Shown piece by piece: positions 4,442 through 59,572 of a stretch of 64,000 nt of DNA. The DNA comes from Candidatus Peribacteria bacterium (GTDB lineage: Bacteria; Patescibacteriota; Gracilibacteria; Peribacterales; Peribacteraceae). The position numbers and the translations under genes are program-made. The stretch covers positions 31,688 to 95,687 of the forward strand of contig VGKY01000002.1 of the NCBI GenBank assembly GCA_016866875.1. Reading direction: 5' to 3'. Every line of letters begins with the position of its first letter. Within the stretch, counting starts at the first letter, position 1. The notes under the pieces were generated by a model. The model saw only the letters and a program-made list of their open reading frames with translations, was not told the DNA's origin and did not search any database.

Positions 4442-4732
4442 GGAAGGGTGGCCGAGTGGTCTATGGCGCCCCGCACTTTTTGGTACGATTTCACGGGAGC
4501 GTGCCAGAGTAGCCTGCCACGAACCGGAGCGCAGCGACTGGTTCTTTGATCGAACAATGCCCAAAAATATTGTATAATCCGTACGGAAGCGTGCCAGAGT
4601 GGTCGATTGGGCCTGACTTGAAATCAGGTAGACCCGCAAGGGTCTCAGAGGTTCGAATCCTCTCGCTTCCGCCAAATAGTGCGGGGTAGGTCCGCAAGGG
4701 CCTCGGGGGTTCGAATCCCTCCCCTTCCGCCA
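4442..4732 (+). tRNA. interrupted tRNA-Ser-like gene (5-prime half 4442-4473, 3-prime half 4682-4732)
   Basis: 5-prime half: GGAAGGG TG GCC GAGTGGTCTAT GGC G CCCCG. 3-prime half: CGGGG, long variable arm TAGGTCCGCAAGGGCCTC, T-arm GGGGG TTCGAAT CCCTC, acceptor CCCTTCC, then G CCA. The acceptor and anticodon stems are complementary between the two halves. No 7-nt anticodon loop can be defined. The halves are separated by 208 bp containing another tRNA. Confidence 0.45.
4585..4674 (+). tRNA. tRNA-Ser (anticodon UGA), CCA encoded
   Basis: Hand-folded cloverleaf: GGAAGCG TG CCA GAGTGGTCGAT TGG G CCTGA CT-TGA-AA TCAGG, variable arm TAGACCCGCAAGGGTCTC, AGAGG TTCGAAT CCTCT, CGCTTCC G CCA. A TATAAT lies 7 nt upstream. 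Confidence 0.9.
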
Positions 4733-7935: not shown

Positions 7936-8484
7936 GTGCTGGAGACGGTACTAGCGGCGGTAGCCCTTGCCCTCCTTGAGTGGTGGGGATCCCCGTGGTC
8001 TGCGCCCGTCGCTCTCCTTCTGCTGATACTCTGCCTCCCAGGAATCTGGTACATGCGCGGTGCAGCCCCCTTTATCACAACCTCAAAGCGGACCATGCAA
8101 GCGATGCTGACGCTCGCAAACATCAAGCACGATGAGCGAGTGTACGACCTCGGCTGCGGCGATGGCAGACTGATCTTTGCAGCTGCCGCTCAGGGGGCAG
8201 ATGCCATCGGCTTCGAGATGTCCATGCCCGTATATCTCCTCGCAAAATCCTCTTCCCTGTTGCGGAGAAACACCTCGATCCGCTACGGCAACCTCTGGAG
8301 GCAGGACTATCGCGATGCCGACGTGATCTTCTGCTACTTCCTCAAAGATACCATGCAGGACTTTTACAAACGGATCTGGCCCACACTGAAGCCGGGGTGT
8401 CGCGTGGTATCGCATGCGTTCACCATCGACGGCAAGGAGGCAGCAGCGAGAGATGGGGATGCGGTGCTCTATGTGAAGGGGTAA
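7936..8484 (+). CDS. membrane-anchored class I SAM-dependent methyltransferase
   Basis: GTG start. Two N-terminal hydrophobic segments, then motif I VYDLGCGDGRL and ADVIFCYF. Confidence 0.65.
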   Translation: MLETVLAAVALALLEWWGSPWSAPVALLLLILCLPGIWYMRGAAPFITTSKRTMQAMLTLANIKHDERVYDLGCGDGRLIFAAAAQGADAIGFEMSMPVYLLAKSSSLLRRNTSIRYGNLWRQDYRDADVIFCYFLKDTMQDFYKRIWPTLKPGCRVVSHAFTIDGKEAAARDGDAVLYVKG

Positions 8485-8490
8485 CCTTAT

Positions 8491-8910
8491 CCAGCGTACG
8501 TTTCTACGTGCGCTTTATGTGAATGGATAGACCCTATCCAGCGCACGTTTCTACGTGCGCGTCCGCCGTACATCCATGGCATGTTTGTAGGTGTAACAAA
8601 TATTCCAGCGTACGTTTCTACGTGCGCGTCCCATCCATATATTGGGGGGTGTGTAAACACATCCACGTAACCCAACGTATGTTTCCCCGTGCGCGTCCCA
8701 TCCATAATGTTTGTGTTTGAACCCGTGTTCCAAAAATCCAGCGCACGTTTCTACGTGCGCGTCCCCCATACATCCATGGCACGTTTCTACGTGTAGCAAA
8801 TATTCCAGCGTACGTTTCTACGTGCGCTTTCATCCAAAATTAATTGCGCACGAAGAATCGTGCGCTGGGGGGCAAATAAAATCACACCCCACGCACGTTT
8901 GCACGCGCGT
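8491..8910. repeat. REP array, left of RAYT
   Basis: Copies of CCAGCG(T/C)ACGTTTCTACGTGCGC(G) at 8491-8513, 8538-8561, 8605-8628, 8738-8761 and 8805-8827. Degenerate copies near 8575-8597, 8671-8695, 8778-8793 and 8889-8909. Variant GCGCACGA-AGAA-TCGTGCGCTGG at 8846-8868. Confidence 0.9.
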
Positions 8911-9025
8911 TCCATCCTCAAAAGGAACCGAAATCTTCGCTTTCCTACAAGGAAAATACTCACATCAAAACGCAACGTCATGCGATCTGCAATCCCAAGC
9001 AATCTCGATGCCGTAGCATCGCATA

Positions 9026-9475
9026 GTGACGCAAAGACATTGGATGCAACATAGTGCCTGCATGCTCATCACATCGGTGACACTTCATCGCGCACCGGTA
9101 TTTGCATGCGAAACGTATGCACGGGCAGCTGTAGAAGGAATGTATTTCGTCCAACAACGTTACCCATTCTTTCTGTATGCATTCGTGGTGATGCCCGACC
9201 ACTGCCATATGCTTTTGTCTGTGCCGGAAAGCGGATCCATCTCGCGCATCATGCACACGTACAAGCGACACGTTAGTTTTGCGTGCGCCAAAGGTCCGCT
9301 GTGGCAGAAGAGATTTCATTGCCGCCTGATTGAAGATACCGCTACGGCTGTGGAGTACATTCACCTCAATCCCGTGCGCGCAGGCCTATCAGAACATCCG
9401 GAAGACTATCGGTGGTCTTCCGCATCCGGGAAATGGGATATCACGTATGTCGATGGCATGGGATGCCACACATAG
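9026..9475 (+). CDS. REP-associated tyrosine transposase (RAYT, IS200/IS605 Y1 family)
   Basis: 149 aa. HUH motif in FVVMPDHCHMLL. C-terminal YIHLNPVRAGL carries the catalytic Tyr, followed by DYRWSS. Size and motif order are typical of RayT/TnpA-REP. Confidence 0.8.
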   Translation: MTQRHWMQHSACMLITSVTLHRAPVFACETYARAAVEGMYFVQQRYPFFLYAFVVMPDHCHMLLSVPESGSISRIMHTYKRHVSFACAKGPLWQKRFHCRLIEDTATAVEYIHLNPVRAGLSEHPEDYRWSSASGKWDITYVDGMGCHT

Positions 9476-9499
9476 CCACCGCACGCGTTGTGAAATGAT

Positions 9500-9791
9500 C
9501 CATCGCACGCTTCTACGTGGGCGTTTAATTGCGCACCAAGAATGGTGTATTAAACGCACGAAGAATCGTGCGCTGGGGGGCGAAAAACACACCCCACGTA
9601 TGTTTCCCCGTGCCCGCCGCATCCATAATGTTTGTTACAAATCCAGCGTACGTTTCTACGTGCGCGTCCCATCCATATATTGGGGGGCGGGAAAACGCAT
9701 CCACGTAACCCAGCGTACGTTTCTACGTGCGCGTCCCACAATGTTTGAACCCGTGTTCCAAAAATCCAGCGCACGATTCTTCGTGCGCTGG
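9500..9791. repeat. REP array, right of RAYT
   Basis: Core copies at 9643-9666 and 9710-9733. Degenerate copies at 9500-9523 and 9592-9615. Variant copies at 9554-9576 and a fully palindromic CCAGCGCACGA-TTCT-TCGTGCGCTGG at 9766-9791. The composite unit 9550-9617 is a direct repeat of 8843-8910. Confidence 0.9.
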
Positions 9792-9821
9792 AGATGGACT
9801 ACGCAGTAGTCATGCGATCAC

Positions 9822-12041
9822 CTACGGATTCTTCGTTTCCCAGTTCAGGGTGATGAACCCAGCGTTTGCCTGTCCTGAACTGTTGGCCGCGAGCTTCACG
9901 AGGATAGTGATGAAACCGCCCGGTGTGTACGTACCTGCACCCTGCGGTCCGGTAATGTTCGCCGTCGTGAAGGACGTATTGGCAAGGGTTGCGCCACCCG
10001 TGAGAGCAACGGCAGCACCTGTCGTGTCGAGCAGCTTCACGGTGATGTGGTTTTGGCTCGTGGTACCCGTCTTCGTACGGTAGCGAAGCTGCAGTGCTTT
10101 TACCGGATCCCAACGGACGAAGTTATCCGGAATCCGCACGCGCGTCGAGACCCAGTAGTCCTGGATGGCGCTCTTCGTGGATGACCACTGGTAGGTATTC
10201 TCGAATCCAGAGTTCAGACCTCCAGAACCCACAAGCTGACCGATGTATGTAGAACCAGATTGGTAGTAGATGGCATTCGGGTACTCCGGATGGATGGAGA
10301 GGATATCGCCGCTTCCCTCGTTAATGCCCGTAGACCAGCTCAGCACCCCTGCCCCATTTGTCCTCAGAACGGCGCCGGATACGCCGGCGTTGCCCGGAAA
10401 GGTCATGGCCTGGCCGCGGATGGTGATCGTCCCATCAACCGTGAGCGTGGAGCCCGAGAGATACCCGGTGGCCTTCACGTCGTCATCAAAGACGAATCGC
10501 GGATTGGCGTCGTTACTGAACGTCAGGGATGCCGTATCCGCATCGTTGCCGAAGGTCAGGACGGCGGCGGAATCGCCGTTGTCCTCGTTGATTGTAAGAT
10601 CAGCATCTGTCGTAATGTTCCCCGTCGTGTTGACCGTTCCCGTGACATCAAGGTCATCGCTGAAGGAAAAGTTGTTCGTCGTGTCGTTGAAGCGAATCGT
10701 CTCGACTCCACCGTCGTTACCGAAGGTGAGGATGGCATCCGCTCCCGTGTTATCCTCGTTGATCGTGAAGTTGCCGTCACCGGAAACCGTACCCGTTGCA
10801 TCAACGTTCCCCGTGACGTCAATGTCGTCGCTAATCGCAAAGTTATTGGTCGTGTCGTTGAAGCGCAGGGTCTCCGCGCCTCCATCATTGCCGAAGGTCA
10901 ATATGGCATCCGCACCACCGTTGTCACTGTTGATCGTCAGGTTGGTTTTGATGGACGCAGACCCGTCCAAGATCAAGGAACCCGAGGACTGGATCTTGTC
11001 ATTGGCATGCAAGATGCGACCGGAAGCGGTTCCAAGAATTTCCAAAGCAGTTCCGGAGAAACTCGGACTGAGGCTAAAGACTGTGCTCGTAAGCGTTAGT
11101 CCCTGACCCGCACTGTAGGTCGTGCCACTATCCGTTCCACAGACGAAGCGTTGCGTGGTTGCGTCCCATGTGAGTTTGCCCGTTGTGGAATCACAGGTGG
11201 AGACGAGTCCTGGTCCCTTGAACTGCGAAACCCACAAGCTTGCGCCGGAGGCAGCGCCTTCCCACACGAGTGTGCCGGAAGATGAGAGGCCGGTCGAAGC
11301 GTGAATGCTTCCCACCGTATCCAATTCATATGCAGGAGCAGCAGTTCCGATACCGACGCGATTGGCTGTGGCATCGATGCTGAGCGTATTGGAGTCAAAG
11401 TTGATACCGTTGACACCTCCAGTGAGAGCGACCGACGTATCGTTGGCAAACGTCCACGTAGAGCTGTTCACGGTTACGGCATCACCACCGGCATCACCGA
11501 TGGTCAGCGTACCGCCATCGAACTGCGCATTGCCATCAACCTCGAGGGTGTTTTGTACGTAGACATCATCGCTGAAATCAAAGCGGCCGGCAGAGTTACT
11601 GAAGGTTAGAGTCTCATTCGTTGATGGTTGTCCGAACGTGAGCACGGCATCCGCTGCCGTCTGATCGCTGTTGATCGTGAGATTGGCCTTTGTGGAGATG
11701 GCACCATCGGCAATGATCGTGCCCGTTGCCGTGAGGTTCCCTTGCACATGCACGTCGTCGGTAAACTCGAATCGACTCGTCTCGTAGTCCCAGAAGATCT
11801 TTTCATTGAGCGTACCGCCGAACCGGAGTTCGATGTCCGTCGTAGAGTCCCCATCATCGATCGTCTGGAAGGATTCTGTATTCACCAGGAGTCCCGGACT
11901 CCACGAAGAGGCAGCGAGGGCAACAGGTGTATGAGAAAGTAAAAGCCCAAGCATCGCTGCGACAGACACTGCCTTCATTGCGGTATGTGTGTATGCGTGT
12001 TTCATGAAATCCCACCATTGTAGCGCAAAACGGACTCTCAT
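9822..12041 (-). CDS. giant secreted surface protein (paralog family; tandem about 45-aa beta-helix-like modules)
   Basis: Signal peptide ...LLLSHTPVALA. Same N-terminal block SSWSPGLLVNTESFQTIDD. Five or more modules ending xF(x)F(S/T)DD(V/I/L)xV(T/Q)G. Shares the SSGTLVWEGAASGASLWVSQFKGPGLV..C....W.ATTQRF.CG block with the 4844 gene and its C-terminal domain with the 12153 gene. Confidence 0.8.
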   Translation of the reverse strand: MRVRFALQWWDFMKHAYTHTAMKAVSVAAMLGLLLSHTPVALAASSWSPGLLVNTESFQTIDDGDSTTDIELRFGGTLNEKIFWDYETSRFEFTDDVHVQGNLTATGTIIADGAISTKANLTINSDQTAADAVLTFGQPSTNETLTFSNSAGRFDFSDDVYVQNTLEVDGNAQFDGGTLTIGDAGGDAVTVNSSTWTFANDTSVALTGGVNGINFDSNTLSIDATANRVGIGTAAPAYELDTVGSIHASTGLSSSGTLVWEGAASGASLWVSQFKGPGLVSTCDSTTGKLTWDATTQRFVCGTDSGTTYSAGQGLTLTSTVFSLSPSFSGTALEILGTASGRILHANDKIQSSGSLILDGSASIKTNLTINSDNGGADAILTFGNDGGAETLRFNDTTNNFAISDDIDVTGNVDATGTVSGDGNFTINEDNTGADAILTFGNDGGVETIRFNDTTNNFSFSDDLDVTGTVNTTGNITTDADLTINEDNGDSAAVLTFGNDADTASLTFSNDANPRFVFDDDVKATGYLSGSTLTVDGTITIRGQAMTFPGNAGVSGAVLRTNGAGVLSWSTGINEGSGDILSIHPEYPNAIYYQSGSTYIGQLVGSGGLNSGFENTYQWSSTKSAIQDYWVSTRVRIPDNFVRWDPVKALQLRYRTKTGTTSQNHITVKLLDTTGAAVALTGGATLANTSFTTANITGPQGAGTYTPGGFITILVKLAANSSGQANAGFITLNWETKNP

Positions 12042-16090: not shown

Positions 16091-17319
16091 TCCCGTGGTT
16101 GAAGCAGGCAATCGGCCAGCGCAGCGCTTTACGGATGTCGTACCATGCCGCAAAAGCATTGCTGGCTGCCGCAGCCTACGGGTTTCCTGCGCGGAATCTC
16201 ACCGTCATCGGCCTCACAGGAACGGATGGTAAGACCACCACCTGCTCGATGATTCGTCATGTGCTTACGAAAGCCCATTACCGTGTAGGCCTTGCGTCCA
16301 CTGCTTTCTTTGACGACGGGACAGGGCTCCAGGCAAATCCCTCTCATCTCACATCCATCAGTCCGTTTGTGTTGCAGAAATTGCTGCGCACGATGATGCG
16401 CAACGGCTGCACCCATGCGATCCTCGAGTGCTCCAGTCACGGTCTCGTCCAGCACCGCCTCGACTGGACGTTTCCGAAGGTGGCCGCCATCACCAATACC
16501 GCACCGGAGCACCTCGACTACCACGGCACTATGGAACTGTACCGTAAGGACAAGGGCATCCTCTTTCGGATGCTGCATGGACGAGGAACGAAGGTGCTGA
16601 ATGGCAACGATGAAACCTTCGCGATGTACTGCCGTATCGCGTCGACTGTAACCTTAGACTGGAATTCGCCTGAGGCTCGAGAGAATGCCGCTGCACTTTC
16701 CCTGCAGATCCCGGGCGCATTCAATCGCGACAATGCGCTCTGTGCGATGAGTGTGTGTAGCGCTCTCGGGCTCGATGTGGAGGCGTGCAAGAAGGCTCTG
16801 GCAACATTTCCCGGGGTTCCGGGTCGCATGGAACGCATCGACGAGGGGCAGCCCTTCGCCGTGTTTGTGGATTTTGCCGTTTCACCGCAGTCCTATGAAA
16901 AGGCATTGCAGACCCTCAGAGAGATGGTCGGGGAATCCGGAAACGTCATCGTCCTGTGCTCAAGCTGCGGCAATCGCATGCGCGAGAAGCGACCGGAGAT
17001 CGGCAGGATCTGCTCTGTGCTAGCAGACATCGTCATAGCAACCGAGGATGAAACGTACGGAGAAGATCCGCACGCGGTTCTGGAGGAGCTCTGGGCCGGC
17101 ATCGACCAAGCTCAGTGCGAAGCACACAACATCTTCGACCGAAGGGAAGCGATCATCTTCGCTTTGAAAAGTGCAAAGCCCGGAGACGCCGTCGTTTTTT
17201 GCGGCATGGGCCCCTTCACGACGATGACGAAGCTTACAGGGAGAGTGCCGTGGGACGAGCGGGCGATCGTGCGGGAGGAATTGGCAGCCATGGGATATGC
17301 ATCCTCCCCTCTCCCATAG
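16087..17319 (+). CDS. Mur ligase family protein (MurE-like UDP-MurNAc-peptide ligase)
   Basis: P-loop GLTGTDGKTTT. Also AITNTAPEHLDYHG, NRDNALCA, GRMERI, and TEDETYGEDP at the position of the MurE DNPR block. Confidence 0.7.
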   Translation: MIPWLKQAIGQRSALRMSYHAAKALLAAAAYGFPARNLTVIGLTGTDGKTTTCSMIRHVLTKAHYRVGLASTAFFDDGTGLQANPSHLTSISPFVLQKLLRTMMRNGCTHAILECSSHGLVQHRLDWTFPKVAAITNTAPEHLDYHGTMELYRKDKGILFRMLHGRGTKVLNGNDETFAMYCRIASTVTLDWNSPEARENAAALSLQIPGAFNRDNALCAMSVCSALGLDVEACKKALATFPGVPGRMERIDEGQPFAVFVDFAVSPQSYEKALQTLREMVGESGNVIVLCSSCGNRMREKRPEIGRICSVLADIVIATEDETYGEDPHAVLEELWAGIDQAQCEAHNIFDRREAIIFALKSAKPGDAVVFCGMGPFTTMTKLTGRVPWDERAIVREELAAMGYASSPLP

Positions 17320-17339
17320 GGAGAGGGGGTCTGTGTGTG

Positions 17340-17722
17340 TAACACCACTGATTGCAGGGTCTCTAATTGTGCGAATGTCATTCTGTGTTTTCTATGGGTT
17401 TGCCATTTCTTTGGCGCAAAGAAATGGCAGAAAGAAACAGTGTCGCTATCGGGATGATGCCTATGCATATCAGCTCACGCAGCGGAAAATGCGAACTCCT
17501 CGCTCGTCCGCTTCGGCGGACTCACTCGTCAAACATGCGCATTTTCTTGCGCTGCGCTCACTGTATGCATGACGGCATCATCCCGGAAGCGACCAAACCC
17601 TGTTTGTATCGCACATATTCTTCTATCGCTTGCGAATCGCATTTCCCTCTCCTCCCAGAGAGCCTGCCTGCGGCAGACAGGCCTACCTGCCGGTAGGCAG
17701 GGGTTAGGGAGAGGGGTCGTAT
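17340..17722. repeat. intergenic stack of short palindromes
   Basis: 12-bp perfect stem GCCATTTCTTTG gcg CAAAGAAATGGC at 17402-17428. GTCCGC TTCG GCGGAC at 17506-17521. Nested CCCTCTCC...GGAGAGGG (17645-17715) encloses CTGCC tgc GGCAG and CCTGCC ggta GGCAGG. Confidence 0.8.
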
Positions 17723-17728
17723 AGCAAA

Positions 17729-17754
17729 CCGGCGTTCCCAAAGGGGAACGCCGG
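17729..17754 (-). terminator. intrinsic terminator candidate for the small minus-strand ORFs
   Basis: 11-bp stem CCGGCGTTCCC / GGGAACGCCGG with a 4-nt loop. On the minus strand it is followed by TTTGCT. Confidence 0.5.
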
Positions 17755-17907
17755 AAATCTTTCAATCCTCTCCTAAGCAGTCGCCCTGCTGGCGAAGTCG
17801 TCGTCGCTCACGCCTGGAATCATTGATCCGAATCCAAGCGATCACGATGATTCCCAGCAAGGCCGCGCCAATGCGGATTGCTAAATGAAGAACCAAAAAG
17901 TCGGGCA

Positions 17908-18132
17908 TCATGAATGCACCTCCCATTCTTTCTTCATTCGCGCATCATCGCGCTTCCACTTCCGGTCGAGTGACCAGAGATAGAGCGCTACCGCCAAGAG
18001 AAAGAAAGCGTAGAGTGACGCCAGCACCGGGAAAAATCCCAGAAAGTCCAGCATCCACTCAACGCAATCATCCTCGGGTGGTCGGTTGTGAAACAAACCG
18101 TTCCACCACTGACACCACGTTGAAGGTTTCAT
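17908..18132 (-). CDS. small membrane protein (hypothetical)
   Basis: 74-aa ORF with one clear TM (FLGFFPVLASLYAFFLLAVALYLW). Its stop overlaps (ATGA) the start of a 47-aa second TM ORF at 17765..17908. Confidence 0.35.
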   Translation of the reverse strand: MKPSTWCQWWNGLFHNRPPEDDCVEWMLDFLGFFPVLASLYAFFLLAVALYLWSLDRKWKRDDARMKKEWEVHS

Positions 18133-18350
18133 ACCTTCCTCCTCCTCCTTGAAAGACAGCTACGTCCCCAGACAAGCGGCTCTGCCGCTAAAAGATCTGG
18201 AGACAGTCGCTGCCTCATGCGTATGATGTGAAGGAGCTGGGTATTAGTACTATTTTATAACTATTACATATTTTGTCAAATAGTGGATTTACGGCTCTTT
18301 GTGGGCATTTGTACACTTGAACGTTCAACTTCATCAGGATAGTACAAGGG

Positions 18351-18589
18351 ATGCTCCCCTATGACGTCTATATCGTGAATGCTCCGACGGGTCTTACTAC
18401 ACGGGAGTGAACAATGATGTGGAGCGTAGAGTTGGAGAGCACAACGAAGGCACAGACCCGAAGGCGTACACCTTCAAACGTCGACCGGTGACATTGGTCT
18501 ACGTATCGGACTTCGGGGACATATGGCAAGCCATCGATTATTATCTCAATGCATCAACCAGACACATTACGATCTCTACCGCAACATAG
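18351..18589 (+). pseudogene. GIY-YIG nuclease family gene, frameshifted
   Basis: Frame a: MLPYDVYIVNAPTGLTTRE-stop carries the GIY-like block. Another frame continues ECSDGSYYTGVNNDVERRVGEHNEG...RRPVTLVY (YIG block and conserved Arg/Glu). The usual C-terminal block is absent. Confidence 0.6.
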
Positions 18590-18591
18590 CA

Positions 18592-18664
18592 TGTCATGCT
18601 GAGCGTAGTCGAAGCAAGACACGCTACATTCTGCGACGTCCCTCGACTACGCTCGGGATGACAC
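18592..18664. repeat. palindromic element family A, copy 1
   Basis: TGTCATGCTGAGCGTAGTCGAAGC...CCTCGACTACGCTCGGGATGACA. The arms are reverse complements. Confidence 0.9.
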
Positions 18665-18667
18665 AGA

Positions 18668-19243
18668 ATGTACAGTAGCACTATGCCTTCCATCACTGCC
18701 GGCATCGACGAAGCGGGTAGAGGGCCTCTTGCAGGCCCTGTCGTTGCTGCTGCCTGTATCCTTCCCACTGGCACCACTGCCCCCTCCTTCATTCGTGACA
18801 GCAAAGCTCTCGAAGCAAACCAGAGGGAAGAGGCGTTTGCGTGGGTGCAGGAGCACTGCTGTGTGGGCATCGGTCTCAGTAGCGCATCCTTTATCGACCG
18901 CTTCGGGATCCTCGCCGCAACCGAGCGCGCGATGCAGCAGGCAGTTTCTATGCTTGCACTCGCAAAACGGCCGACGTACCTCCTCGTCGATGGCAGAGAC
19001 AAGTTTTGGTTTGATTACCCGCATAGCTCTATCATCAAGGGCGATATGCTCGAGCCCTGCATCTCAGCAGCCTCCATCATCGCGAAAGTCACCCGCGACC
19101 ATATGATGCGCGAGGCCGATAAGGCGTTTCCAGGATATGGCTTTGTGAGACACAAGGGGTATGGGTCAGAGGAGCATTATGCGATGCTCCGTAAGCTCGG
19201 AATGTGTGCAATCCATAGGAAAAGCTTTACTCGGCTGAGATGA
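18668..19243 (+). CDS. rnhB: ribonuclease HII
   Basis: AGIDEAGRGPLAGPVVAAA, LVDG, ASIIAKVTRD, GYGS. Confidence 0.85.
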   Translation: MYSSTMPSITAGIDEAGRGPLAGPVVAAACILPTGTTAPSFIRDSKALEANQREEAFAWVQEHCCVGIGLSSASFIDRFGILAATERAMQQAVSMLALAKRPTYLLVDGRDKFWFDYPHSSIIKGDMLEPCISAASIIAKVTRDHMMREADKAFPGYGFVRHKGYGSEEHYAMLRKLGMCAIHRKSFTRLR

Positions 19244-19266
19244 AACTCAAGCTTTCCATGTAACAA

Positions 19267-20052
19267 TCATTGTACTCTCGGTTTTCTGCCAAAATACAAG
19301 ACAAAGAGTCCTCCAATCACAATCGGCACCGAGTACACCTGCCCTCTGGTGAGGATCATCGGACCGATGATGAGCGCTGTGTGCGTCGGCTCTCGGAGGA
19401 ATTCCAATGCGAAGCGCAGCACTCCGTACAGTATCAGAAAGATTCCCGCAGTCTGTCCTTGGGACTTCATTGGCAATCGCAAATGAAGGAAGCAGACCCC
19501 TGCAATGAAGAGATCCTTCAACACGGCATAGAGCTGGGTAGGGTGCCGTAGTCCTTCTACGCCGGGGATCGCAATACCCCACGGGAGTGTAGTAGGAATG
19601 CCGTACAACTCCTGATTGATAAAGTTTCCCAGTCTCCCCAGAGCGAGTCCGATCGCCACCGGAACGACGACGATATCCCCGAGGGCAAGCAAGGAAATCT
19701 TGTGCTTCCGTGCCGAGAAGATGAGCGACAGGATCACGCCGATGAATCCTCCATGACTCGCCATGCCTCCTTTCCACACGGCAAGCACCTCTAGAGGATG
19801 CATGAGATAGTATCCAGGATCGTAGAAGAGCACATAGCCAAGGCGCCCTCCGAGAAGCACGCCCAGCACGCCCCACGCGAGGATATCTCCCCAGGCATCG
19901 CTATCGAGGCTGAGGCCACGGTACTTCTGCAGTCGGGGAAGGAGCAGGTAGGCAACGAGAAATCCTGCAAGGTACAGGAGTCCGTACCAGTGCACGTCGA
20001 AGCCAAAAACAGAAATTGCGACGGCGCGGGAGGGGAAGAGCGAAAGCATCAC
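19267..20052 (-). CDS. lgt: prolipoprotein diacylglyceryl transferase
   Basis: HWYGLLYLAGFLVAY, GGRLGYVLFY, WKGGMASHGG, GRLGNFINQELYG, HPTQLY. Confidence 0.9.
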   Translation of the reverse strand: MMLSLFPSRAVAISVFGFDVHWYGLLYLAGFLVAYLLLPRLQKYRGLSLDSDAWGDILAWGVLGVLLGGRLGYVLFYDPGYYLMHPLEVLAVWKGGMASHGGFIGVILSLIFSARKHKISLLALGDIVVVPVAIGLALGRLGNFINQELYGIPTTLPWGIAIPGVEGLRHPTQLYAVLKDLFIAGVCFLHLRLPMKSQGQTAGIFLILYGVLRFALEFLREPTHTALIIGPMILTRGQVYSVPIVIGGLFVLYFGRKPRVQ

Positions 20053-20075
20053 TATGGATCATAGCATTCATTGCA

Positions 20076-20174
20076 TGTCACGCTGAGCGTAGTCGAAGCG
20101 CGGCATGCAATGATCACGTGTCTCCTTCGACCCGTCCGAGTCGTCGGCCGAGGCGGGCTACGCTCAGGATGACA
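20076..20174. repeat. palindromic element family A, copy 2 (longer, right arm interrupted)
   Basis: TGTCACGCTGAGCGTAGTCGAAGCG...GGCTACGCTCAGGATGACA, located between lgt and the upstream membrane protein gene. Confidence 0.85.
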
Positions 20175-20187
20175 CACATTGAATGTG

Positions 20188-21642
20188 CTAATTCCCGCAC
20201 ATCGACTCCATCACCCACTCCCCTCTCTTCTGCAGACAAGGATCACCGTAGAAGCCTTTTACATACTCCCCGTAGTGATCGGTGAAGAGCGGTGTGAGGA
20301 CGAAGAGTGTTCCTTGGGGAAGACCGAAGAGGAGCAATCTGCGTTCCTCATGTGTGCCGTAGAGAAACTGCCCCCACTGGTCCTTGGTCCAACCGGGGAG
20401 ATCAAAGATGCCCGGACCACCGATAGTGCGCTCAGGAAGCCAGCCGAGGAGCCACGGCGCTCCGGCATTGTCGAGAGCAATCACTGGTGCAGACCCGGTA
20501 GAAACCTCGAGGGCGGAGGACTGAATCGCCCAGTAGGTATCCATATTGATGACGGGCACGCGCTCCCACGCGACACGGAAAGATATCGCCCCCTGAGCGA
20601 TGAGGAGCACTACGAGTGCGGCACGCAGTGCCGGCAAGCGCAAGCGCCTCCAGAGATCCTGCATGGCAATCGCAGCAAAGGGCAGGAGGAAGAAATCGCA
20701 CTGGAGAAAAAAGCGGCGATAGAACACGAGGCGAAAGATGATGAAGGGAAGTGTCCAGAGGACGGCAAGCTGCCACAGACTCCCCTTCTCCTTGCGCAGA
20801 GAAAGGAGAAATCCCCAGACACCGAGAGACAGAAGAATACCCGTCGTGCGAAGGTAGAAAACAGGATCGGGGAAAGAGCCACCCGGTGCGAGATCGCCGC
20901 GCAACTTGTAGATACTTGTGAAGGGATCGCGCACCGCCGCCGTCCAGTGCGGAAGGTAGAGGAGCAAGCTGAGGAGTGCGATCACTGCAAGAAATCCTCC
21001 CGTCATCCAGAGGCGACGGTCATACGGGCGAGAGCGCAGAGAGATCAGCCACCAAGAGCCGATGGTCAAGCCGAGGAGGAGCCCTGTCTGATGGTGGATG
21101 ATGAGCGCAAGGAATGCGAAGAGCGGCGCAAGCTTCGAGCGCCTCTCGAGAGCTCCGAAGGTGAAGATGGTGAAGAGCAGTGCGGCGTACGTCTTCCAGT
21201 ACATACCGACGAAACCATCGTAAAAGGGTAGCGAAAGGGCAGCTGCGAGAAGCACGAAGATACCAACGGCTCTCTCCTCCCTTCGGGAAAATTCCGCAGC
21301 AAGGGCAAGAGCGAGAACAATGGGGACAAAGTTCCACATCCAACCGAGGAGCCACTCAACCGGTGCACCGATCCTGAGGAGTGGTGCAGCAAGCAAAAAG
21401 AGTCCGGGAGGGTGCTCCCCTGCCCACCGCGGCAAGTCCGGAAGCAACGGAAAGCTCTCTGCGTACTTCAGAAAGAGGAAACGATAGATGCCCGGGTCAT
21501 ACCCGAGAGGGATGGGAAAGCGGAAAAAGGGCGTGAAAAACTTGATCGTGAGAAGCGCAAGAAGCACGTACCAAGCAATGACCGGCATGACCTTACGCAT
21601 GTTCGAGGAATGTAGCGGCATCCCCGATATGATAGAGGGCAA
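20188..21642 (-). CDS. polytopic membrane protein, GT-C/ArnT-PMT-like glycosyltransferase (putative)
   Basis: More than 10 hydrophobic segments, with a soluble C-terminal about 120 aa. No sharp motif recognised. An alternative start at MRKVMPVIAW is possible. Confidence 0.4.
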   Translation of the reverse strand: MPSIISGMPLHSSNMRKVMPVIAWYVLLALLTIKFFTPFFRFPIPLGYDPGIYRFLFLKYAESFPLLPDLPRWAGEHPPGLFLLAAPLLRIGAPVEWLLGWMWNFVPIVLALALAAEFSRREERAVGIFVLLAAALSLPFYDGFVGMYWKTYAALLFTIFTFGALERRSKLAPLFAFLALIIHHQTGLLLGLTIGSWWLISLRSRPYDRRLWMTGGFLAVIALLSLLLYLPHWTAAVRDPFTSIYKLRGDLAPGGSFPDPVFYLRTTGILLSLGVWGFLLSLRKEKGSLWQLAVLWTLPFIIFRLVFYRRFFLQCDFFLLPFAAIAMQDLWRRLRLPALRAALVVLLIAQGAISFRVAWERVPVINMDTYWAIQSSALEVSTGSAPVIALDNAGAPWLLGWLPERTIGGPGIFDLPGWTKDQWGQFLYGTHEERRLLLFGLPQGTLFVLTPLFTDHYGEYVKGFYGDPCLQKRGEWVMESMCGN

Positions 21643-44120: not shown

Positions 44121-44552
44121 GTGCGTATGCACGTGCCGCATCTGGGAAAAAAGTTACGGGTGTTAGCAGCAACGCTAACCGTCATGCTCCTGGCGGGCAT
44201 CGCTGCAGGCTTACGCGCTCGATCCGCAGGCGCGTCACAGATTGAATTCTTCGACGTGGAGCAACGAGACTTCGTAGCGGAGTCTCACAACATCCGTCGT
44301 ATGGAAGTATGGCTCGTGCCCCAGGGCGCGCAAAGTGAAACGCAGTGGAAGACCCTTGGCCTGATGAAGGGCAGATCGCACTGGTTTTCCTGGGCAGCTT
44401 GGACGCTGCCTATCCCCGAAAAGCCACTCGATGTGCTGCAGATCATGGTACGAGGGTACGATAAAACCGGAACGGAAGTGGACAGAGTGTCGCTTCCCTG
44501 GCTTGGACCGGAAACACTGAAGAGAGAGGTCTGGGGAATGGAAATCAATTAG
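44121..44552 (+). CDS. hypothetical membrane-anchored protein
   Basis: N-terminal TM (LRVLAATLTVMLLAGIAAGL). No family recognised. Confidence 0.4.
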   Translation: MRMHVPHLGKKLRVLAATLTVMLLAGIAAGLRARSAGASQIEFFDVEQRDFVAESHNIRRMEVWLVPQGAQSETQWKTLGLMKGRSHWFSWAAWTLPIPEKPLDVLQIMVRGYDKTGTEVDRVSLPWLGPETLKREVWGMEIN

Positions 44553-44559
44553 TGGAGCG

Positions 44560-44628
44560 TGTCACGCTGAGCGTAGTCGAAGCGCGACACGAAAAATGTT
44601 ATGTCCCTCGACTACGCTCGGGATGACA
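44560..44628. repeat. palindromic element family A, copy 3
   Basis: TGTCACGCTGAGCGTAGTCGAAGCG...CCCTCGACTACGCTCGGGATGACA, between two convergent genes. Confidence 0.9.
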
Positions 44629-44644
44629 CATTTTACTTCATTAT

Positions 44645-46264
44645 TCATTCATCATTATTCATTCTTAATTCCTCTAGGGCTCTCTTCGCATCCACCTCCA
44701 GCGGACTACTCTCCACAGCTCGTTCATAGGCCTGCCGAGCAAGGTCCTTTTTTCCCTGTGCACGCAAAATCTGCCCGACGTTGTACCACGTTGTCGCATC
44801 ATCGCGGATCTGGAGTGCCTTGGTGTACGCACGCAATCCTTCATGCAAGTTGCCGCGTCGCACCTCGTCTGTGCCGATGTTGCTCCAGGCTACGTAGGAA
44901 TGCGGTTGCACATGGGCAACGTGGGAAAAGAGCGTGTGTGTGTCCTTCCAAAATAATGATTGACGGTAGGAAAGGTTGGAGAAGACGAAGAGAACGAAAA
45001 AGACGCAGAGGGACAAAAGCTTCGGGAATCGGTCGGCAGCATTCGCAATCATCCAACCGACAACCAGCAACAAACCGATCGAAGGAAGATAGGCATAGCG
45101 ATCGGACGTGATGTAGATATCCAATAGTTCATTGTGACCTTTGGTGATGTTGGAGAATGACGGCGCAAGGAACAGCAAGAACCACCCCCATGCAAAAAGA
45201 GGCAACCGCACTCCCCTTCTTACTGCGAGCCAGAGAGCGAACACCGAGACGCAGAGGACGAAAAGGACGGAGAAGAGTAGTTCCGGCGAGAAGAGAGAAA
45301 TGGGTTTCGTAAAAGGGTAGAGCGCAGACAAGCCTGTAGGCCAGAAGAACTTCTGGAGAAGCAGGGTGACTGCGCGGCAACCCATCAGGAATTTTTCCAA
45401 GAGGAATCCCGTGTTGGCGATTTTTCCTCCAAGCGCGACTATGCCGAAGATGATGGAAAGGATGAAAAAGGGCACAGCCCTCAATAATGACAACTGCGTT
45501 GTCATCCTGAGCGTAGTCGAAGGAGACAATGCAGGACGTGCCATGGTTCGACTACGCTCACCATGACTCTCATGCTGCACTGCAGCATTTCCCTGGTACC
45601 AATCCATGAGTACCATCAATACCGGCCACGTGAGAACGGAGACCTTGGAGAGAAGTGCGAGGAGAAACATCCCAACACTTGCCCAGTACCATCTTCTCCC
45701 TGTGCCATCCCGAGCGTAGTCGAGGGATGTTTCATGCAAAGAGGCTTCGACTACGCTCAGCCTGACTCGCGATTTCATATACAAAAGCATCGTCCACAGA
45801 AAGAAGAACACCGAGAGCACATCCTTTCTCGCAGCAGCCCACACGACTGCTTCCGTGTGAAGAGGATGCAGTGCAAAGATTAGGCTCGTGAAAATACTGC
45901 AGAATGAAGAATGAAGAATGAAGAATTGTTCTCCAGTCTTCTGTAGCAGCTTTTGCACGATCATCCCCACCATTACCGCATTGGCAATGTGCAACAGAAG
46001 ATTCCCAAGGTGATACCCAAACGGCTCCAATCCTCCTACGACGTAATTGATCTGATAACTGACAAAAGTGAGCGGGATATAGAGCTCCGGATCGTACGAT
46101 GTAAATGCAAGCCAGAGATTGTGAAAAGAAAGTCCGCGAATGATCGGATTTTCCGTAATCAGCAGTCCGTCATCCCACGTCACAAAACCATTGCCAAGCG
46201 ACTGGGCATAGAGAGCGATCGGCAACAACATGCATAAGCCAAGGACAGCATGACGACGAAGCAT
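44645..46264 (-). CDS. TPR-containing polytopic membrane protein (TMTC/PMT_2-like glycosyltransferase, putative)
   Basis: Start set at MLRRHAVLGLCMLL. WDDGLLITENP, TSYDPELYIPLTFVSYQINY, FGYHLGNLLLH. C-terminal TPRs (WSNIGTDEVRRGNLHEGLRAYTKAL..., WYNVGQILRAQGKKDLARQAYERAV). Carries two family-A elements and a heptamer array in frame. Confidence 0.6.
   Translation of the reverse strand: MLRRHAVLGLCMLLPIALYAQSLGNGFVTWDDGLLITENPIIRGLSFHNLWLAFTSYDPELYIPLTFVSYQINYVVGGLEPFGYHLGNLLLHIANAVMVGMIVQKLLQKTGEQFFILHSSFCSIFTSLIFALHPLHTEAVVWAAARKDVLSVFFFLWTMLLYMKSRVRLSVVEASLHETSLDYARDGTGRRWYWASVGMFLLALLSKVSVLTWPVLMVLMDWYQGNAAVQHESHGERSRTMARPALSPSTTLRMTTQLSLLRAVPFFILSIIFGIVALGGKIANTGFLLEKFLMGCRAVTLLLQKFFWPTGLSALYPFTKPISLFSPELLFSVLFVLCVSVFALWLAVRRGVRLPLFAWGWFLLFLAPSFSNITKGHNELLDIYITSDRYAYLPSIGLLLVVGWMIANAADRFPKLLSLCVFFVLFVFSNLSYRQSLFWKDTHTLFSHVAHVQPHSYVAWSNIGTDEVRRGNLHEGLRAYTKALQIRDDATTWYNVGQILRAQGKKDLARQAYERAVESSPLEVDAKRALEELRMNNDE
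45500..45567. repeat. palindromic element family A, copy 4 (inside CDS, in frame)
   Basis: TGTCATCCTGAGCGTAGTCGAAGGA...GGTTCGACTACGCTCACCATGAC. Translated on the minus strand as SHGERSRTMARPALSPSTTLRMT. Confidence 0.85.
45703..45766. repeat. palindromic element family A, copy 5 (inside CDS, in frame)
   Basis: TGCCATCCCGAGCGTAGTCGAGGGA...GCTTCGACTACGCTCAGCCTGAC. Translated on the minus strand as VRLSVVEASLHETSLDYARDG, a different element phase from copy 4. Confidence 0.85.
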
Positions 46265-46425
46265 CCTCAATACTCTATAAGTAGGTGGGGCTCCGCCGCC
46301 ACGGGGGGTGTTGCGGCAAGCGGAGGAGCTTTGGAGGCGGTGCGTTTTTCTTTCTCCACTTTCTTTTGTCGGGGAGACAAAAGAAAGTGGAATCTGCAAT
46401 AAGCAGCAACCCTTGTACCTAACTC

Positions 46426-48534: not shown

Positions 48535-48554
48535 ATGCCCATACAATCGATTCT

Positions 48555-48582
48555 GCAGCGGAGGTTCATGAACCTCCGCTGC
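48555..48582 (+). terminator. palindromic element family B, copy 1, positioned as the groEL terminator
   Basis: GCAGCGGAGG ttcatgaa CCTCCGCTGC followed by GGTTTCTG, 20 nt after the groEL stop. Confidence 0.6.
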
Positions 48583-48632
48583 GGTTTCTGTAAAGATGCC
48601 CCTCGTGCATCCACAACTGCTACAATTTTTGC

Positions 48633-52800: not shown

Positions 52801-54126
52801 ATGAAGATTCTCCTCGTTTCCTCCTCCGCTCGTGGGCACGCCATCGCCGAGGCGCTCATGCGCAGTCGCCATAAGCCCCGTCTCGTCGCACTCAGTCCCA
52901 ATGACAACGTGGGGATCGCAAAAATCGCGGAGTATCACCAAGCGGTCGACATCATGGATTTTTCAAAGGTGCTCAGTATCGCTCAGGAGCACAAGCCGGA
53001 CTTTGCCCTCATCGGACCCGATGATCCGATTGGCGGGGGTCTTGCTGATGCGCTCGAAGAGATCGGCATACCCTGCATCGCGCCGAGGAAATCCCTTGCA
53101 CGCATCGAGAGCTCGAAGGCATTTGCGAGAGAGTTGATGCACAAGAACGGCATCGAGTCGTATCCTAAGTTTATGGCTTTCCAAAGGGCTGACCCCGAAT
53201 TGATGAATGCATTCGTCGAGAGGTGCGATGGTGAATTCGTCGTGAAGTACGACGCTCTCAAGGGAGGAAAAGGCGTGAAAGTCAGCGGAGAGCATTTTCA
53301 GAAGCGCGAGGAAGGTATTGCCTACGCAGAGGAGTGCATTGCAGAGTGCGGCACCGTCGTTCTCGAGGAAAAACTCGTTGGCGTAGAGTTCAGTCTCATG
53401 AGTTTTGTCTCGGGAACATCCGTCGTCGATATGCCTGCTGTGCAAGATCACAAGAGAGCCTACGAGGGAGATACAGGACCCAATACAGGGGGCATGGGAA
53501 CGTACTCCTGCGTAGATCATGCACTCCCCTTCCTCACAAATGCCGATCTCGCTGAGGCAAAGAGGATCAATCGCAGCATTGCACAGGCGCTGATCAAAGA
53601 ATGCGGACATCCCTACCGCGGCATCCTGTACGGCGGCTTCATAGCGGTAAGAGATGGAGTACGCGTGATCGAATACAATGCGCGGTTTGGTGATCCGGAG
53701 GCACTCAACGTACTACCGATCCTTGAGTCGGACTTTGTAGATCTCTGCCTTGGGATGATCGAAGGCTCGATCGATGATGGGATGGCGCGCTTCCAAAAGA
53801 AGGCAACTGTCTGCAAGTACGTGACGCCAGCAAGCTACCCGAGTGCAAAGCTTGAGGTGGGAAAGCCTATAGATATTCCCAAGGGTGATACTACCAATGC
53901 GCGCGTGTACCTCGGCGATGTTTCACAGGATTCCCACGGAAGACTCCTGCTTGGAGGCTCACGATCTATAGGAGTTGTGGGAATAGGTTCAACCCTAGAG
54001 GAAGCGGAGGAAATTGCGCAAAAAATGTGCTCAGGTATTCAGGGTCCTGTGCGATTTCGTAGAGACATCGGCACGCAAACTCTGATCCAGAAGCGCATCG
54101 ATACCATGCAATCGCTCCGTAACTGA
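52801..54126 (+). CDS. purD: phosphoribosylamine-glycine ligase
   Basis: MKILLVSSSARGHAIAEAL, ATP-grasp blocks FVVKYDALKGGKGV, EEKLVGVEFS, GPNTGGMG, IEYNARFGDPE. Confidence 0.9.
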   Translation: MKILLVSSSARGHAIAEALMRSRHKPRLVALSPNDNVGIAKIAEYHQAVDIMDFSKVLSIAQEHKPDFALIGPDDPIGGGLADALEEIGIPCIAPRKSLARIESSKAFARELMHKNGIESYPKFMAFQRADPELMNAFVERCDGEFVVKYDALKGGKGVKVSGEHFQKREEGIAYAEECIAECGTVVLEEKLVGVEFSLMSFVSGTSVVDMPAVQDHKRAYEGDTGPNTGGMGTYSCVDHALPFLTNADLAEAKRINRSIAQALIKECGHPYRGILYGGFIAVRDGVRVIEYNARFGDPEALNVLPILESDFVDLCLGMIEGSIDDGMARFQKKATVCKYVTPASYPSAKLEVGKPIDIPKGDTTNARVYLGDVSQDSHGRLLLGGSRSIGVVGIGSTLEEAEEIAQKMCSGIQGPVRFRRDIGTQTLIQKRIDTMQSLRN

Positions 54127-54216
54127 CGTGAAGCGCATCGATCTCTCGACGGCGCTGATCCCATTTGTCACCTTCACCCTTCGACACGCTCAGGGTGAAC
54201 TACACACTGCGACAGT

Positions 54217-58456: not shown

Positions 58457-59572
58457 ATGCGCGTACTCGTGGCCCTCTCCGGTGGCATAGATAGCTCCGT
58501 CGTAGCGTATCTGCTCAAAAGAGCAGGCCACGAACTGGTTGCTGTACGCTTTCTCCTCTGGACTGATCCGCTCGCGCCAGCACTAGCCGAGATCCTTCCG
58601 AGCAAGTGCTGCACAACCCAAAATGCCATGCGTGCGCAGAAGGTCGCCGAGACGCTGAGTATCCCCTATCACATCGTCGACCTGAGCGAGGAATTCAAAA
58701 GCAGTGTCGTCGATCCGTACCTCGAGAGTCATAGAAAAGGCCTGACGCCCAATCCCTGTATCGGCTGCAACCGCACGATCAAGTTTGGAAAACTCATCGA
58801 GCTCATGAGGGAGTACGGCTGTGAAAAACTTGCAACGGGACACTACGCGCGCGTTGCGGTTGAGGAATCAGCCTCCGCAGCGGAGGTTCATGAAGCTCCG
58901 CTGCGGAGGTGTCTGCTCCTTGAGGCTGTCGACAAAACCAAAGATCAAAGCTACTACCTCTACGGTCTTTCGCAGGAGCAACTATCCCATTGCTTATTTC
59001 CCCTGGGGGCAATGCAGAAGTCCCAGGTCTATGGTCTCGCCAAAGAATTCGGTGTGCCATTTGATGACATTTCCTACCGGGAGAGCCAGGATCTCTGCTT
59101 CTTTCCCGAGAAGACTCCCGAGGAATTTCTCAAGAGGCACCTCAGCGATGCGCTCAAGCCAGGCCCGATTGTGCGCAGGGACGGCACGGTGATGGGCACT
59201 CACGAGGGACTTGCGCTCTACACCCTGGGGCAGCGCAAAGGTCTCGGAATCGGTGGCCTCAAGATCCCCCTCGAGGTCGTAGAAAAGCGCACTCAGGAAA
59301 ACGCACTCGTCGTTGCCGACCGCGGCAGCGAGCAAGTGAACGACGTGACCATCGGAGACATCGCTTGGGTATCGTGGAAACCCGAGGAATCGCTGGAAGC
59401 ACCCTTCGAGTGCCGTACGCGATCACTCTCCACAAAGCACCGCGGCGTGCTCAGCTACAGTGGTACAAAAGGGGTATTTCGGCTCACTACACCCCTTCCA
59501 CCGCAAAGTCCCGGTCAAGCGCTGGTGCTGTACCGCGGCGAGGAGATCGTCGGAGGGGGCATCATCCAGTGA
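58457..59572 (+). CDS. mnmA: tRNA 2-thiouridine(34) synthase
   Basis: MRVLVALSGGIDSSV (PP-loop), NPCIGCNR, ATGHYAR, KDQSYYLY. Carries an in-frame family-B palindrome. Confidence 0.9.
   Translation: MRVLVALSGGIDSSVVAYLLKRAGHELVAVRFLLWTDPLAPALAEILPSKCCTTQNAMRAQKVAETLSIPYHIVDLSEEFKSSVVDPYLESHRKGLTPNPCIGCNRTIKFGKLIELMREYGCEKLATGHYARVAVEESASAAEVHEAPLRRCLLLEAVDKTKDQSYYLYGLSQEQLSHCLFPLGAMQKSQVYGLAKEFGVPFDDISYRESQDLCFFPEKTPEEFLKRHLSDALKPGPIVRRDGTVMGTHEGLALYTLGQRKGLGIGGLKIPLEVVEKRTQENALVVADRGSEQVNDVTIGDIAWVSWKPEESLEAPFECRTRSLSTKHRGVLSYSGTKGVFRLTTPLPPQSPGQALVLYRGEEIVGGGIIQ
58872..58909. repeat. palindromic element family B, copy 2 (inside mnmA, in frame)
   Basis: CCTCCGCAGCGGAG gttcatgaag CTCCGCTGCGGAGG. 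Shares an identical 18-mer GCAGCGGAGGTTCATGAA with 48555-48572. Encodes ASAAEVHEAPLRR. Confidence 0.9.

Follow-up and report, generated by a model that had tools for sequence, protein, structure and literature searches.

Hairpin elements in the window

The window analysed here is a stretch of 64,000 nucleotides from a Candidatus Peribacteria bacterium (GenBank assembly GCA_016866875.1, contig VGKY01000002.1, forward-strand positions 31,688 to 95,687). It carries a small palindromic repeat, referred to here as family A, two copies of which lie inside the gene of a membrane protein with tetratricopeptide repeats (TPR). The original prediction, made from the sequence alone, was that both copies are in-frame insertions behaving like Rickettsia palindromic elements (RPEs). 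The observation is confirmed as real and its interpretation as essentially right: the event is of an already known kind, here caused by an apparently new repeat family. The host gene and the family-A features of the window are the following.

44645..46264, minus strand: host gene, 539 amino acids, with an N-terminal polytopic membrane part of the PMT_2/GT-C type and C-terminal TPR repeats (TPR Pfam matches); syntenic with groES-groEL
45703..45766, no strand assigned: coding copy, site 1; minus-strand peptide VRLSVVEASLHETSLDYARDG, residues 167-187
45500..45567, no strand assigned: coding copy, site 2; minus-strand peptide HGERSRTMARPALSPSTTLRMT, residues 234-255, one phase off site 1
44560..44628, no strand assigned: intergenic copy between convergent genes, 8 nt past the stop of 44121..44552 (plus strand) and 17 nt past the stop of the host gene
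20076..20174, no strand assigned: intergenic copy of 99 nt, 14 nt past the stop of the membrane-protein gene 20188..21642 (minus strand) and 24 nt upstream of lgt
18592..18664, no strand assigned: intergenic copy, 3 nt past a truncated GIY-YIG open reading frame (ORF; 18365..18589, plus strand) and immediately 5' of rnhB (18668..19243, plus strand)
54172..54200, minus strand: intergenic solo variant unit GTTCA-CCCT-GAGCGTGTCGA-AGGG with a 2-nt loop, 46 nt past the stop of 52801..54126 (plus strand); covariance model R1, 29.6 bits, E 1.7e-6

With up to three mismatches allowed, the core CTGAGCGTAGTCGAAG has 12 matches in the 64-kb window, where shuffled sequence would give 0.6, and the exact 12-mer GAGCGTAGTCGA occurs nine times. 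The matches assemble into five hairpin elements, three intergenic and two coding, at the very coordinates given in the original prediction. Each element is an inverted dimer; the copy at site 1, for example, consists of the unit TGCCA-TCCC-GAGCGTAGTCGA-GGGA and, on the opposite strand, AGTCA-GGCT-GAGCGTAGTCGA-AGCC. The copy at 20076 owes its greater length to a nested 26-nt hairpin (20132-20157) that splits the right-arm core. Folding energies range from -41 to -61 kcal/mol (z -5.2 to -6.6) for the three intergenic copies and from -28 to -33 kcal/mol (z -2.3 to -3.2) for the two coding ones. Trained on units from genomes other than this one and applied without filters to the full 64 kb, the covariance model R1 retrieves all nine intact window units at 35-39 bits, adds only the solo unit at 54172-54200, and finds no decayed family-A copies in other window genes.

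The intergenic copies had been thought to occupy terminator positions. In terms of location this holds for two of the three, which lie 8-17 nt past stop codons; the third lies 3 nt past the stop of a truncated GIY-YIG ORF and immediately upstream of rnhB. A terminator scan of 17300-20400, which covers the copies at 18592 and 20076, called none at either of them and called canonical-looking terminators elsewhere in that stretch. As read by eye, no T run follows the hairpin at 44560 toward either flanking gene. A role as intrinsic terminators was rejected, since the hairpins are without T runs. Rfam gave no match for the whole window at gathering thresholds, nor for 44400-46000 at E-values up to 10, and the core, judged by eye, fits neither a hammerhead nor a tRNA arm.

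Anatomy of the repeat unit

The repeating unit is each arm of the hairpin, not the whole palindrome. A unit of about 25-30 nt comprises a 5' tag, the first strand of a covarying stem of 4-5 bp, the core GAGC-N3-GTCGA and the second strand of that stem; an element of 65-70 nt results when two such units are inverted about a copy-specific spacer. In 289 units collected with no flank filter, each of the four bases before the core pairs with its partner after the core in 85-99% of cases (29-51% when shuffled), with several Watson-Crick pair types at each of the four, and beyond these the pairing is at background level from position 6 on. By formal count, 91.9% of cells are paired versus 68.8% for shuffles, with a covariation score of 0.67 versus 0.21 for shuffles and 0.09-0.14 for slid partners; the alignment behind this count was pre-filtered to at most one stem mismatch, so that the 289-unit set supplies the unbiased figure. 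The left- and right-arm stems of one element often differ, which places the covariation within arms. Folding energy alone was rejected as its cause, single units folding no better than shuffles. The compact fold proposed for the unit d(TCCTGAGCGTAGTCGAAGGA), with which the variant cores described below would agree, is a stem followed by tandem G.A/A.G pairs, a G-C pair, a bulged T and a C-G pair closing a GNA triloop.

The upstream tag has the consensus GTCA in the Candidate Phyla Radiation (CPR) and in Bacteroidota (TGTCA in Peregrinibacteria and Bacteroidota), where most units are preceded by T/C-GTCA, and GTTCG in sphingomonads. In the window, TGTCA stands before six of the nine intact units, the other three having AGTCA (twice) and TGCCA. 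Several units of Peregrinibacteria pair the tag with a downstream GACA, by which the stem can be extended to nine pairs including the tag. Variant cores keep GAGC and GTCGA and alter the middle three bases, most triloops among 41 variants being GAA, GGA or GCA. The same pattern is seen in a solo unit within the groES-groEL spacer of three related contigs (L001 9293-9312, L125 9532-9551, and L127 4304-4323): the contigs differ solely in the triloop (GTA versus CTC) and in one stem base, with GAGC and GTCGA unchanged. The corresponding spacer of the window is 36 nt long and has no family-A unit.

Reading frame of the host gene across the inserts

Homologues of the host protein come nearly all from Candidatus Peregrinibacteria/Peribacteria; they are named protein O-mannosyl-transferase or TPR protein and often carry PMT_2 or PMT domains (PF13231/PF02366). 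The groES-groEL pair adjoins the gene both here and in related contigs. Modelled with AlphaFold (mean pLDDT 74, pTM 0.77), the protein has a polytopic helical N-terminal part followed by TPRs. Sequence and fold searches of the PDB retrieve TPR proteins for the most part, and the resemblance of the membrane part to ArnT and AglB is only weak.

The minus-strand ORF is open across both copies, which are spaced exactly 135 nt apart, and yields the peptides HGERSRTMARPALSPSTTLRMT and VRLSVVEASLHETSLDYARDG as originally quoted. The claim that the two copies are read in different element phases also stands: at site 1 the frame runs ..CTG AGC GTA GTC GAA.. / ..CTC GAC TAC GCT.., and at site 2 ..GAG CGT AGT CGA.. 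/ ..TCG ACT ACG CTC... The third phase of an arm holds TGA and TAG, so that two of the three phases are open on either strand. About 120 copies from other genomes agree with this rule, at most four of the six frames being open. Both inserts fall in loops between long hydrophobic helices (143-166 and 188-206 for the first, 208-235 and 248-280 for the second), where pLDDT is 45-61. Presumably they are translated, adding 21-22 hydrophilic residues to each loop; in that case peptides such as LSVVEASLHETSLDYAR or TMARPALSPSTTLR would belong to the product.

The open frame might be incidental if the gene were a pseudogene, or if the inserts were removed before or after translation. A hairpin of -28 to -33 kcal/mol is unusual within a coding sequence, but nothing direct points to such removal, and no intron or ribozyme family was matched in Rfam. 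The ORF is intact over 539 codons and conserved along its whole length, with invariant WDD, HPLHTEAV, NELLD and TPR positions, and the orthologue on contig L001 also keeps both inserts open. In addition, every independent coding insertion found is in frame and stop-free, which excision would not require; translation is therefore the economical reading, and decay or removal is very improbable.

Insertion relative to orthologues and constraint on the nucleotide sequence

An alignment of 17 proteins and a codon alignment of five sequences were used to place the inserts. Nothing in P0003, P0005, P0007-P0013 or the more distant homologues corresponds to residues 167-187 and about 226-255; both segments are present only in the two closest sequences and are absent from more than 15 other orthologues. 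The original prediction of two insertions of about 22 amino acids in loops agrees with this alignment, in which most orthologues lack both, and with the low-pLDDT inter-helix positions. Behaviour of the RPE kind is thus borne out by in-frame inserts absent from most orthologues, by the loop sites, by the conserved gene, and by the two open phases.

Loop lengths vary in this protein family, and the segments could in principle be ancestral coding sequence lost elsewhere, or chance palindromes, with the intergenic copies being unrelated or derived from the gene. The confinement of the segments to two sequences argues against this, as do the recurrence of the 12-mer core and its covarying stems between genes in many phyla and a chance expectation for the hairpin far below one; we regard such an origin as extremely improbable.

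Both elements recur at identical sites in P0002 (contig L001), which at about 75% amino-acid identity is the closest orthologue; the copy-specific stems are identical too and the spacers nearly so, which indicates that the copies were inherited and not inserted independently. Between the window and L001, the rest of the host gene is 73% identical overall and 53% at third codon positions, and GroEL, taken as calibration, 85.5% and 66%, respectively. The two elements reach 91% (site 1) and 93% (site 2) overall and 43 of 46 third positions, an excess over 53% with a binomial P of 3e-9. As the elements exceed the gene in identity, third positions included, the insertions appear to be old and constrained at the nucleotide level in this one genome pair. 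Of the sparse substitutions within the elements, most lie in the spacers, at first and second codon positions, and change the encoded amino acid, which indicates that the conserved entity is DNA or RNA and not the peptide. A recent recombination tract was rejected as the source of the high identity: the 130 nt between the elements diverge at the gene-wide rate. L001 also has an additional 24-nt solo unit (CCCT-TCGACTTCGCTC-AGGA), in frame, inside the right-arm core at site 1.

This constraint raises the possibility that the hairpin is mainly a functional nucleic-acid signal under selection, with which a mobile origin would be compatible. Candidate roles are a 3'-end stabiliser of mRNA or a terminator-like structure, a binding site for a conserved host protein, and a translational pause site; the coding copies would then persist owing to the usefulness of the structure. 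Such a role would account for arms, including copy-specific stems, that are identical between the window and L001 while synonymous sites are near saturation, and for a peptide that is not conserved; the core conserved across phyla with covarying stems, the two dimers and one solo unit just past stop codons, and the solo unit retained in three groES-groEL spacers point the same way. On the other hand, no T run follows the hairpins and neither of the two intergenic copies scanned was called a terminator, Rfam holds no matching family, and insertion into unrelated genes of several phyla speaks against a gene-specific role. With the constraint measured in a single genome pair, a signal under selection as the main explanation appears possible but not probable. 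A repeat more conserved than the gene around it does, at any rate, make the question of selfish versus functional hairpins of the repetitive extragenic palindromic (REP) kind testable by comparative genomics.

Distribution across bacteria and recurrent coding insertion

A scan for GAGCGTAGTCGA-N15-45-TCGACTACGCTC in one genome per species found the full hairpin at 120 or more loci in about a dozen phyla, and the family is not specific to this genome. Among the matches listed, the hosts are Bacteroidota, Sphingomonadales and other Proteobacteria, Cyanobacteria, Peregrinibacteria, Verrucomicrobia, Acidobacteriota, Chloroflexota, Actinomycetota, SAR324, Spirochaetota, Melainabacteria, Vulcanimicrobiota, and Clostridia. 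By our own estimate, fewer than 0.1 matches to 24 specified bases would be expected by chance in 596 Gb. The cross-phylum copies listed are mostly intergenic or near gene ends, and about 10-13 lie inside long ORFs. Five coding dimers were checked, and the genes in which they lie in frame are genuine.

Verrucomicrobia: DnaE, between the HHH_6 and OB domains
Bacteroidia: Mur ligase
Chloroflexia: Mur ligase
Vulcanimicrobiota: PMT_2 glycosyltransferase
Peribacteria: giant protein

In-frame colonisation by palindromic repeats, the RPE phenomenon, is thereby extended to the CPR, and the same small element does so in at least five phyla (in DnaE, Mur ligases, and GT-C glycosyltransferases). Two features go beyond a routine case, namely the cross-phylum core with covarying stems and the conservation in coding sequence exceeding that of the host gene. 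A more far-reaching reading is that the unit is a pan-bacterial structured motif of single-stranded DNA or RNA, recognised by a factor common to the phyla and under purifying selection even within coding sequences. We consider this rather unlikely; if it were true, the coding copies would be embedded signals with a function and not junk that the genes tolerate, and family A would amount to a large superfamily of REPs, nameless in the open literature searched and with no known mobilising enzyme.

Insertion has also recurred within the host gene family. Across 67 orthologous host genes of metagenomic origin, strong palindromes are concentrated in three loops, around window residues 116 (loop A), 160-185, and 243. 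The palindrome that encodes loop A differs from one close orthologue to the next. Two more distant orthologues have solo family-A units in loop A, in frame, in opposite orientations and different phases, read as FDYAQPD in one and CHSERSRG in the other. Near site 1, P0004 has a nested family-A-like element in degenerate form, and several orthologues have a small hairpin (CCGCAGGTG-AGGA-CACCTGCGG) at site 2.

Other repeats are seen at the same gene. In the window, loop A (residues ~104-125) is encoded by a second, AT-rich repeat (GAATGAAGAATGAAGAATTGTTC...) at 45895-45940, which recurs just past the host stop (44640-44675). Unrelated perfect palindromes occupy loop A of orthologues (for example, CGTAGCGGAGAGCCG/CGGCTCTCCGCTACG in L001, GAAAATTGAAAATTGAAAATGG... 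in L003). In L156 (4958-4977), the first ATG of the frame leading into the orthologue falls within ..GAATGACA, the end of a family-A unit (..STTLRMTLRF..), and here the repeat may supply the start codon. Upstream of the host gene there is a further palindrome family, CCACTTTCTTTTGTC-GGGGA-GACAAAAGAAAGTGG (window 46352-46392; L001 11598-11640; also L125). In P0005 (L125) and P0007 this palindrome is seemingly translated as an N-terminal extension (..LSFVYRTKERRK..), probably an artefact of gene calling. For annotation, the peptides VILSVVEG, HPERSR, STTLRMT and LDYARDD, as well as spurious N-terminal extensions, flag translated repeats and not protein motifs.

Comparison with known repeat systems

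RPE-1 to RPE-8 are palindromic repeats found in frame in conserved genes, to which they add 20-50 residues (Ogata et al. 2000, 2002, summarised in PMC3733652). Family A resembles them as a dispersed hairpin repeat with in-frame inserts at tolerated positions, with the ORF and apparently the function kept, and with two inserts possible per gene. It differs in occurring in Peregrinibacteria/CPR and not in Rickettsia, in being shorter than RPE-1, and in spanning phyla. Its peptides (VILSVVEG, HPERSR, STTLRMT, LDYARDD) are also unlike those of RPE-6/RPE-4 (VIPAKAGI, SFPRKRES, DSRFRGND, and VIPWLDHGI; PMC3733652 supplement), and none of its peptide motifs is found in the peptide table of PMC3733652, in a comparison that covers RPE-4 and RPE-6 among the eight families.

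The closest described relatives of family A, despite several defining features that it does not share, are the CGTC/TGTC-tagged REPs, a superfamily that includes RPE-4, RPE-6, and Neisseria dRS3 (Di Nocera, De Gregorio and Rocco 2013, PMC3733652). Intragenic dimers of these REPs encode 20-30 residues, sometimes twice per ORF, and often lie in dnaE or repair genes (PMC3733652). The 5' TGTC of family A, followed by AT in many units, recalls the unpaired terminal CGTC or TGTC tag of these REPs. Common to both are the short stem-loop and the inverted pairs with spacers of 20-100 nt; so are the location near ORF 3' ends between convergent or co-directional genes, the in-frame dimers (dnaE included), the spread over several phyla, and the lack of a dedicated transposase (PMC3733652). 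All five elements in the window are inverted dimers, and two of the three intergenic dimers plus the solo unit lie 8-46 nt past stop codons. The tagged REPs have an 8-9 bp stem starting with A-T, a 4-5 nt loop and a CCA tail, whereas family A has 4-5 canonical pairs, a 12-nt core and no CCA. Moreover, the tag of Peregrinibacteria can pair with a downstream GACA, and the core sequences are unrelated.

REPIN/RAYT systems (Bertels and Rainey 2011, PMC3116915; Quentin et al. 2018, PMC6006769) likewise have inverted REP doublets folding into one long hairpin, and a RAYT-type Y1/HUH transposase is encoded in the same genome window. The differences are that no GTAG/GTGG lies 5' of the hairpin foot (the upstream sequence is GTCA or GTTCG, and GTAG occurs only within the GTA-loop variant of the core), that the RAYT-like gene of the window is flanked by arrays of CCAGCGTACGTTTCTACGTGCGC, and that the core is shared across phyla. 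Having neither the GTAG guide nor a cognate RAYT, family A is not a REPIN in the strict sense. In comparison with miniature inverted-repeat transposable elements, the termini are inverted (TGTCA...TGACA), with no direct duplication evident in the flanks and no parent insertion sequence seen. The small dispersed repeats of cyanobacteria (Elhai et al. 2008) are reported to be tiny, to nest in other repeats or hairpins, and to be able to sit in coding sequences. Family A resembles them in these respects, and Cyanobacteria are among its hosts. The open literature searched contains neither the exact cores nor the translated motifs, nor anything on palindromic repeats in Peregrinibacteria.

Proposed origin and mobility

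Family A is probably a non-autonomous palindromic repeat of the REP/REPIN kind, old dimers of which are tolerated in frame in loops. Two dimers would have landed in the gene of a glycosyltransferase-like membrane protein before the window and L001 lineages split. They could have survived there because the net insert length preserved the frame, because the host frame reads a stop-free phase of the arms (LSVVE../..LDYA or ERSR../..STTL), and because both sites are loops between transmembrane helices. Copies have accumulated mostly just downstream of genes, and some are found within loops of other hairpins. Their spread would presumably proceed through a hairpin of single-stranded DNA, acted on by a Y1/HUH (RAYT-type) enzyme or by some host factor.

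Several points weigh against this account. There was no sign of a polymorphic empty site, a target-site duplication or an excision footprint, and mobility is therefore deduced from the distribution alone. The RAYT-like gene of the window is flanked on both sides not by family A but by another hairpin repeat, CCAGCGTACGTTTCTACGTGCGC, in arrays (spacing ~67 nt), and by GCGCACGAAGAATCGTGCGCTGG, and no Y1 transposase was found in ~125 other loci searched. As REPs are in general species-specific (PMC6006769), a core common to many phyla is unusual. Isolated units reach only -2 to -6 kcal/mol with nearest-neighbour DNA energies, which leave non-canonical pairs out of account, with z not significant against shuffles, so that the covarying stem would need non-canonical pairs or a protein to matter.

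The RAYT-like ORF of the window (9017..9472, plus strand) matches Y1_Tnp in Pfam (E 6e-10) and, by phmmer, a Koribacter TIRYT (E 6e-14), and it has the motifs DHCH, WQ, and YIHLNP. A linkage of family A to RAYT was rejected: the gene goes with the other repeats, and none was found at the ~125 further loci. The region around the ORF (window 8484-9800) is a REPtron-like locus, and no report of RAYT/REP systems in CPR bacteria was found in the open literature searched.

The hairpins were also considered as emptied carriers of genes for the 23S rRNA intervening-sequence protein (IVP) or for GIY-YIG proteins. As a general rule this cargo hypothesis was rejected; phmmer over all loci finds IVP or GIY-YIG beside a hairpin solely in the window and L103. 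The GIY-YIG ORF of the window (18365-18589, plus strand; PF01541, E 1.4e-7) has lost its N-terminal GIY part to an in-frame stop, and in L103 a GIY-YIG ORF lies ~120 nt from a family-A hairpin. L003 has a 23S rRNA IVP gene (four-helix-bundle, PF05635) at 11598-11960, an intergenic site matching that of the window copy at 44560-44628. The gene is bracketed by inverted GAGAATGGAGAATTGAGAAT repeats, and GAGAATGGAGAATTGAGAAT also gives the last codons of the host gene (..ELRMEN) in several orthologues.

Other repeats in the window

A 33-nt palindrome, TCTGCAGCGGAGGTTCATGAACCTCCGCTGCGG, occurs twice in the window (48552-48584 and 58875-58907), is 94% complementary, and in its first copy lies directly past the groEL stop; it may represent the real terminator-type hairpin family of this genome. 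At 4585-4732, two adjacent tRNA-like 3' halves, 81% identical, lie 58 nt apart, and Rfam calls one tRNA there (4585-4671). Inverted repeats at 4922-5292 and 11137-11903 (102-146 nt, 73% complementary), ~6 kb apart, bracket the REPtron region and are probably diverged paralogous genes in opposite orientation.

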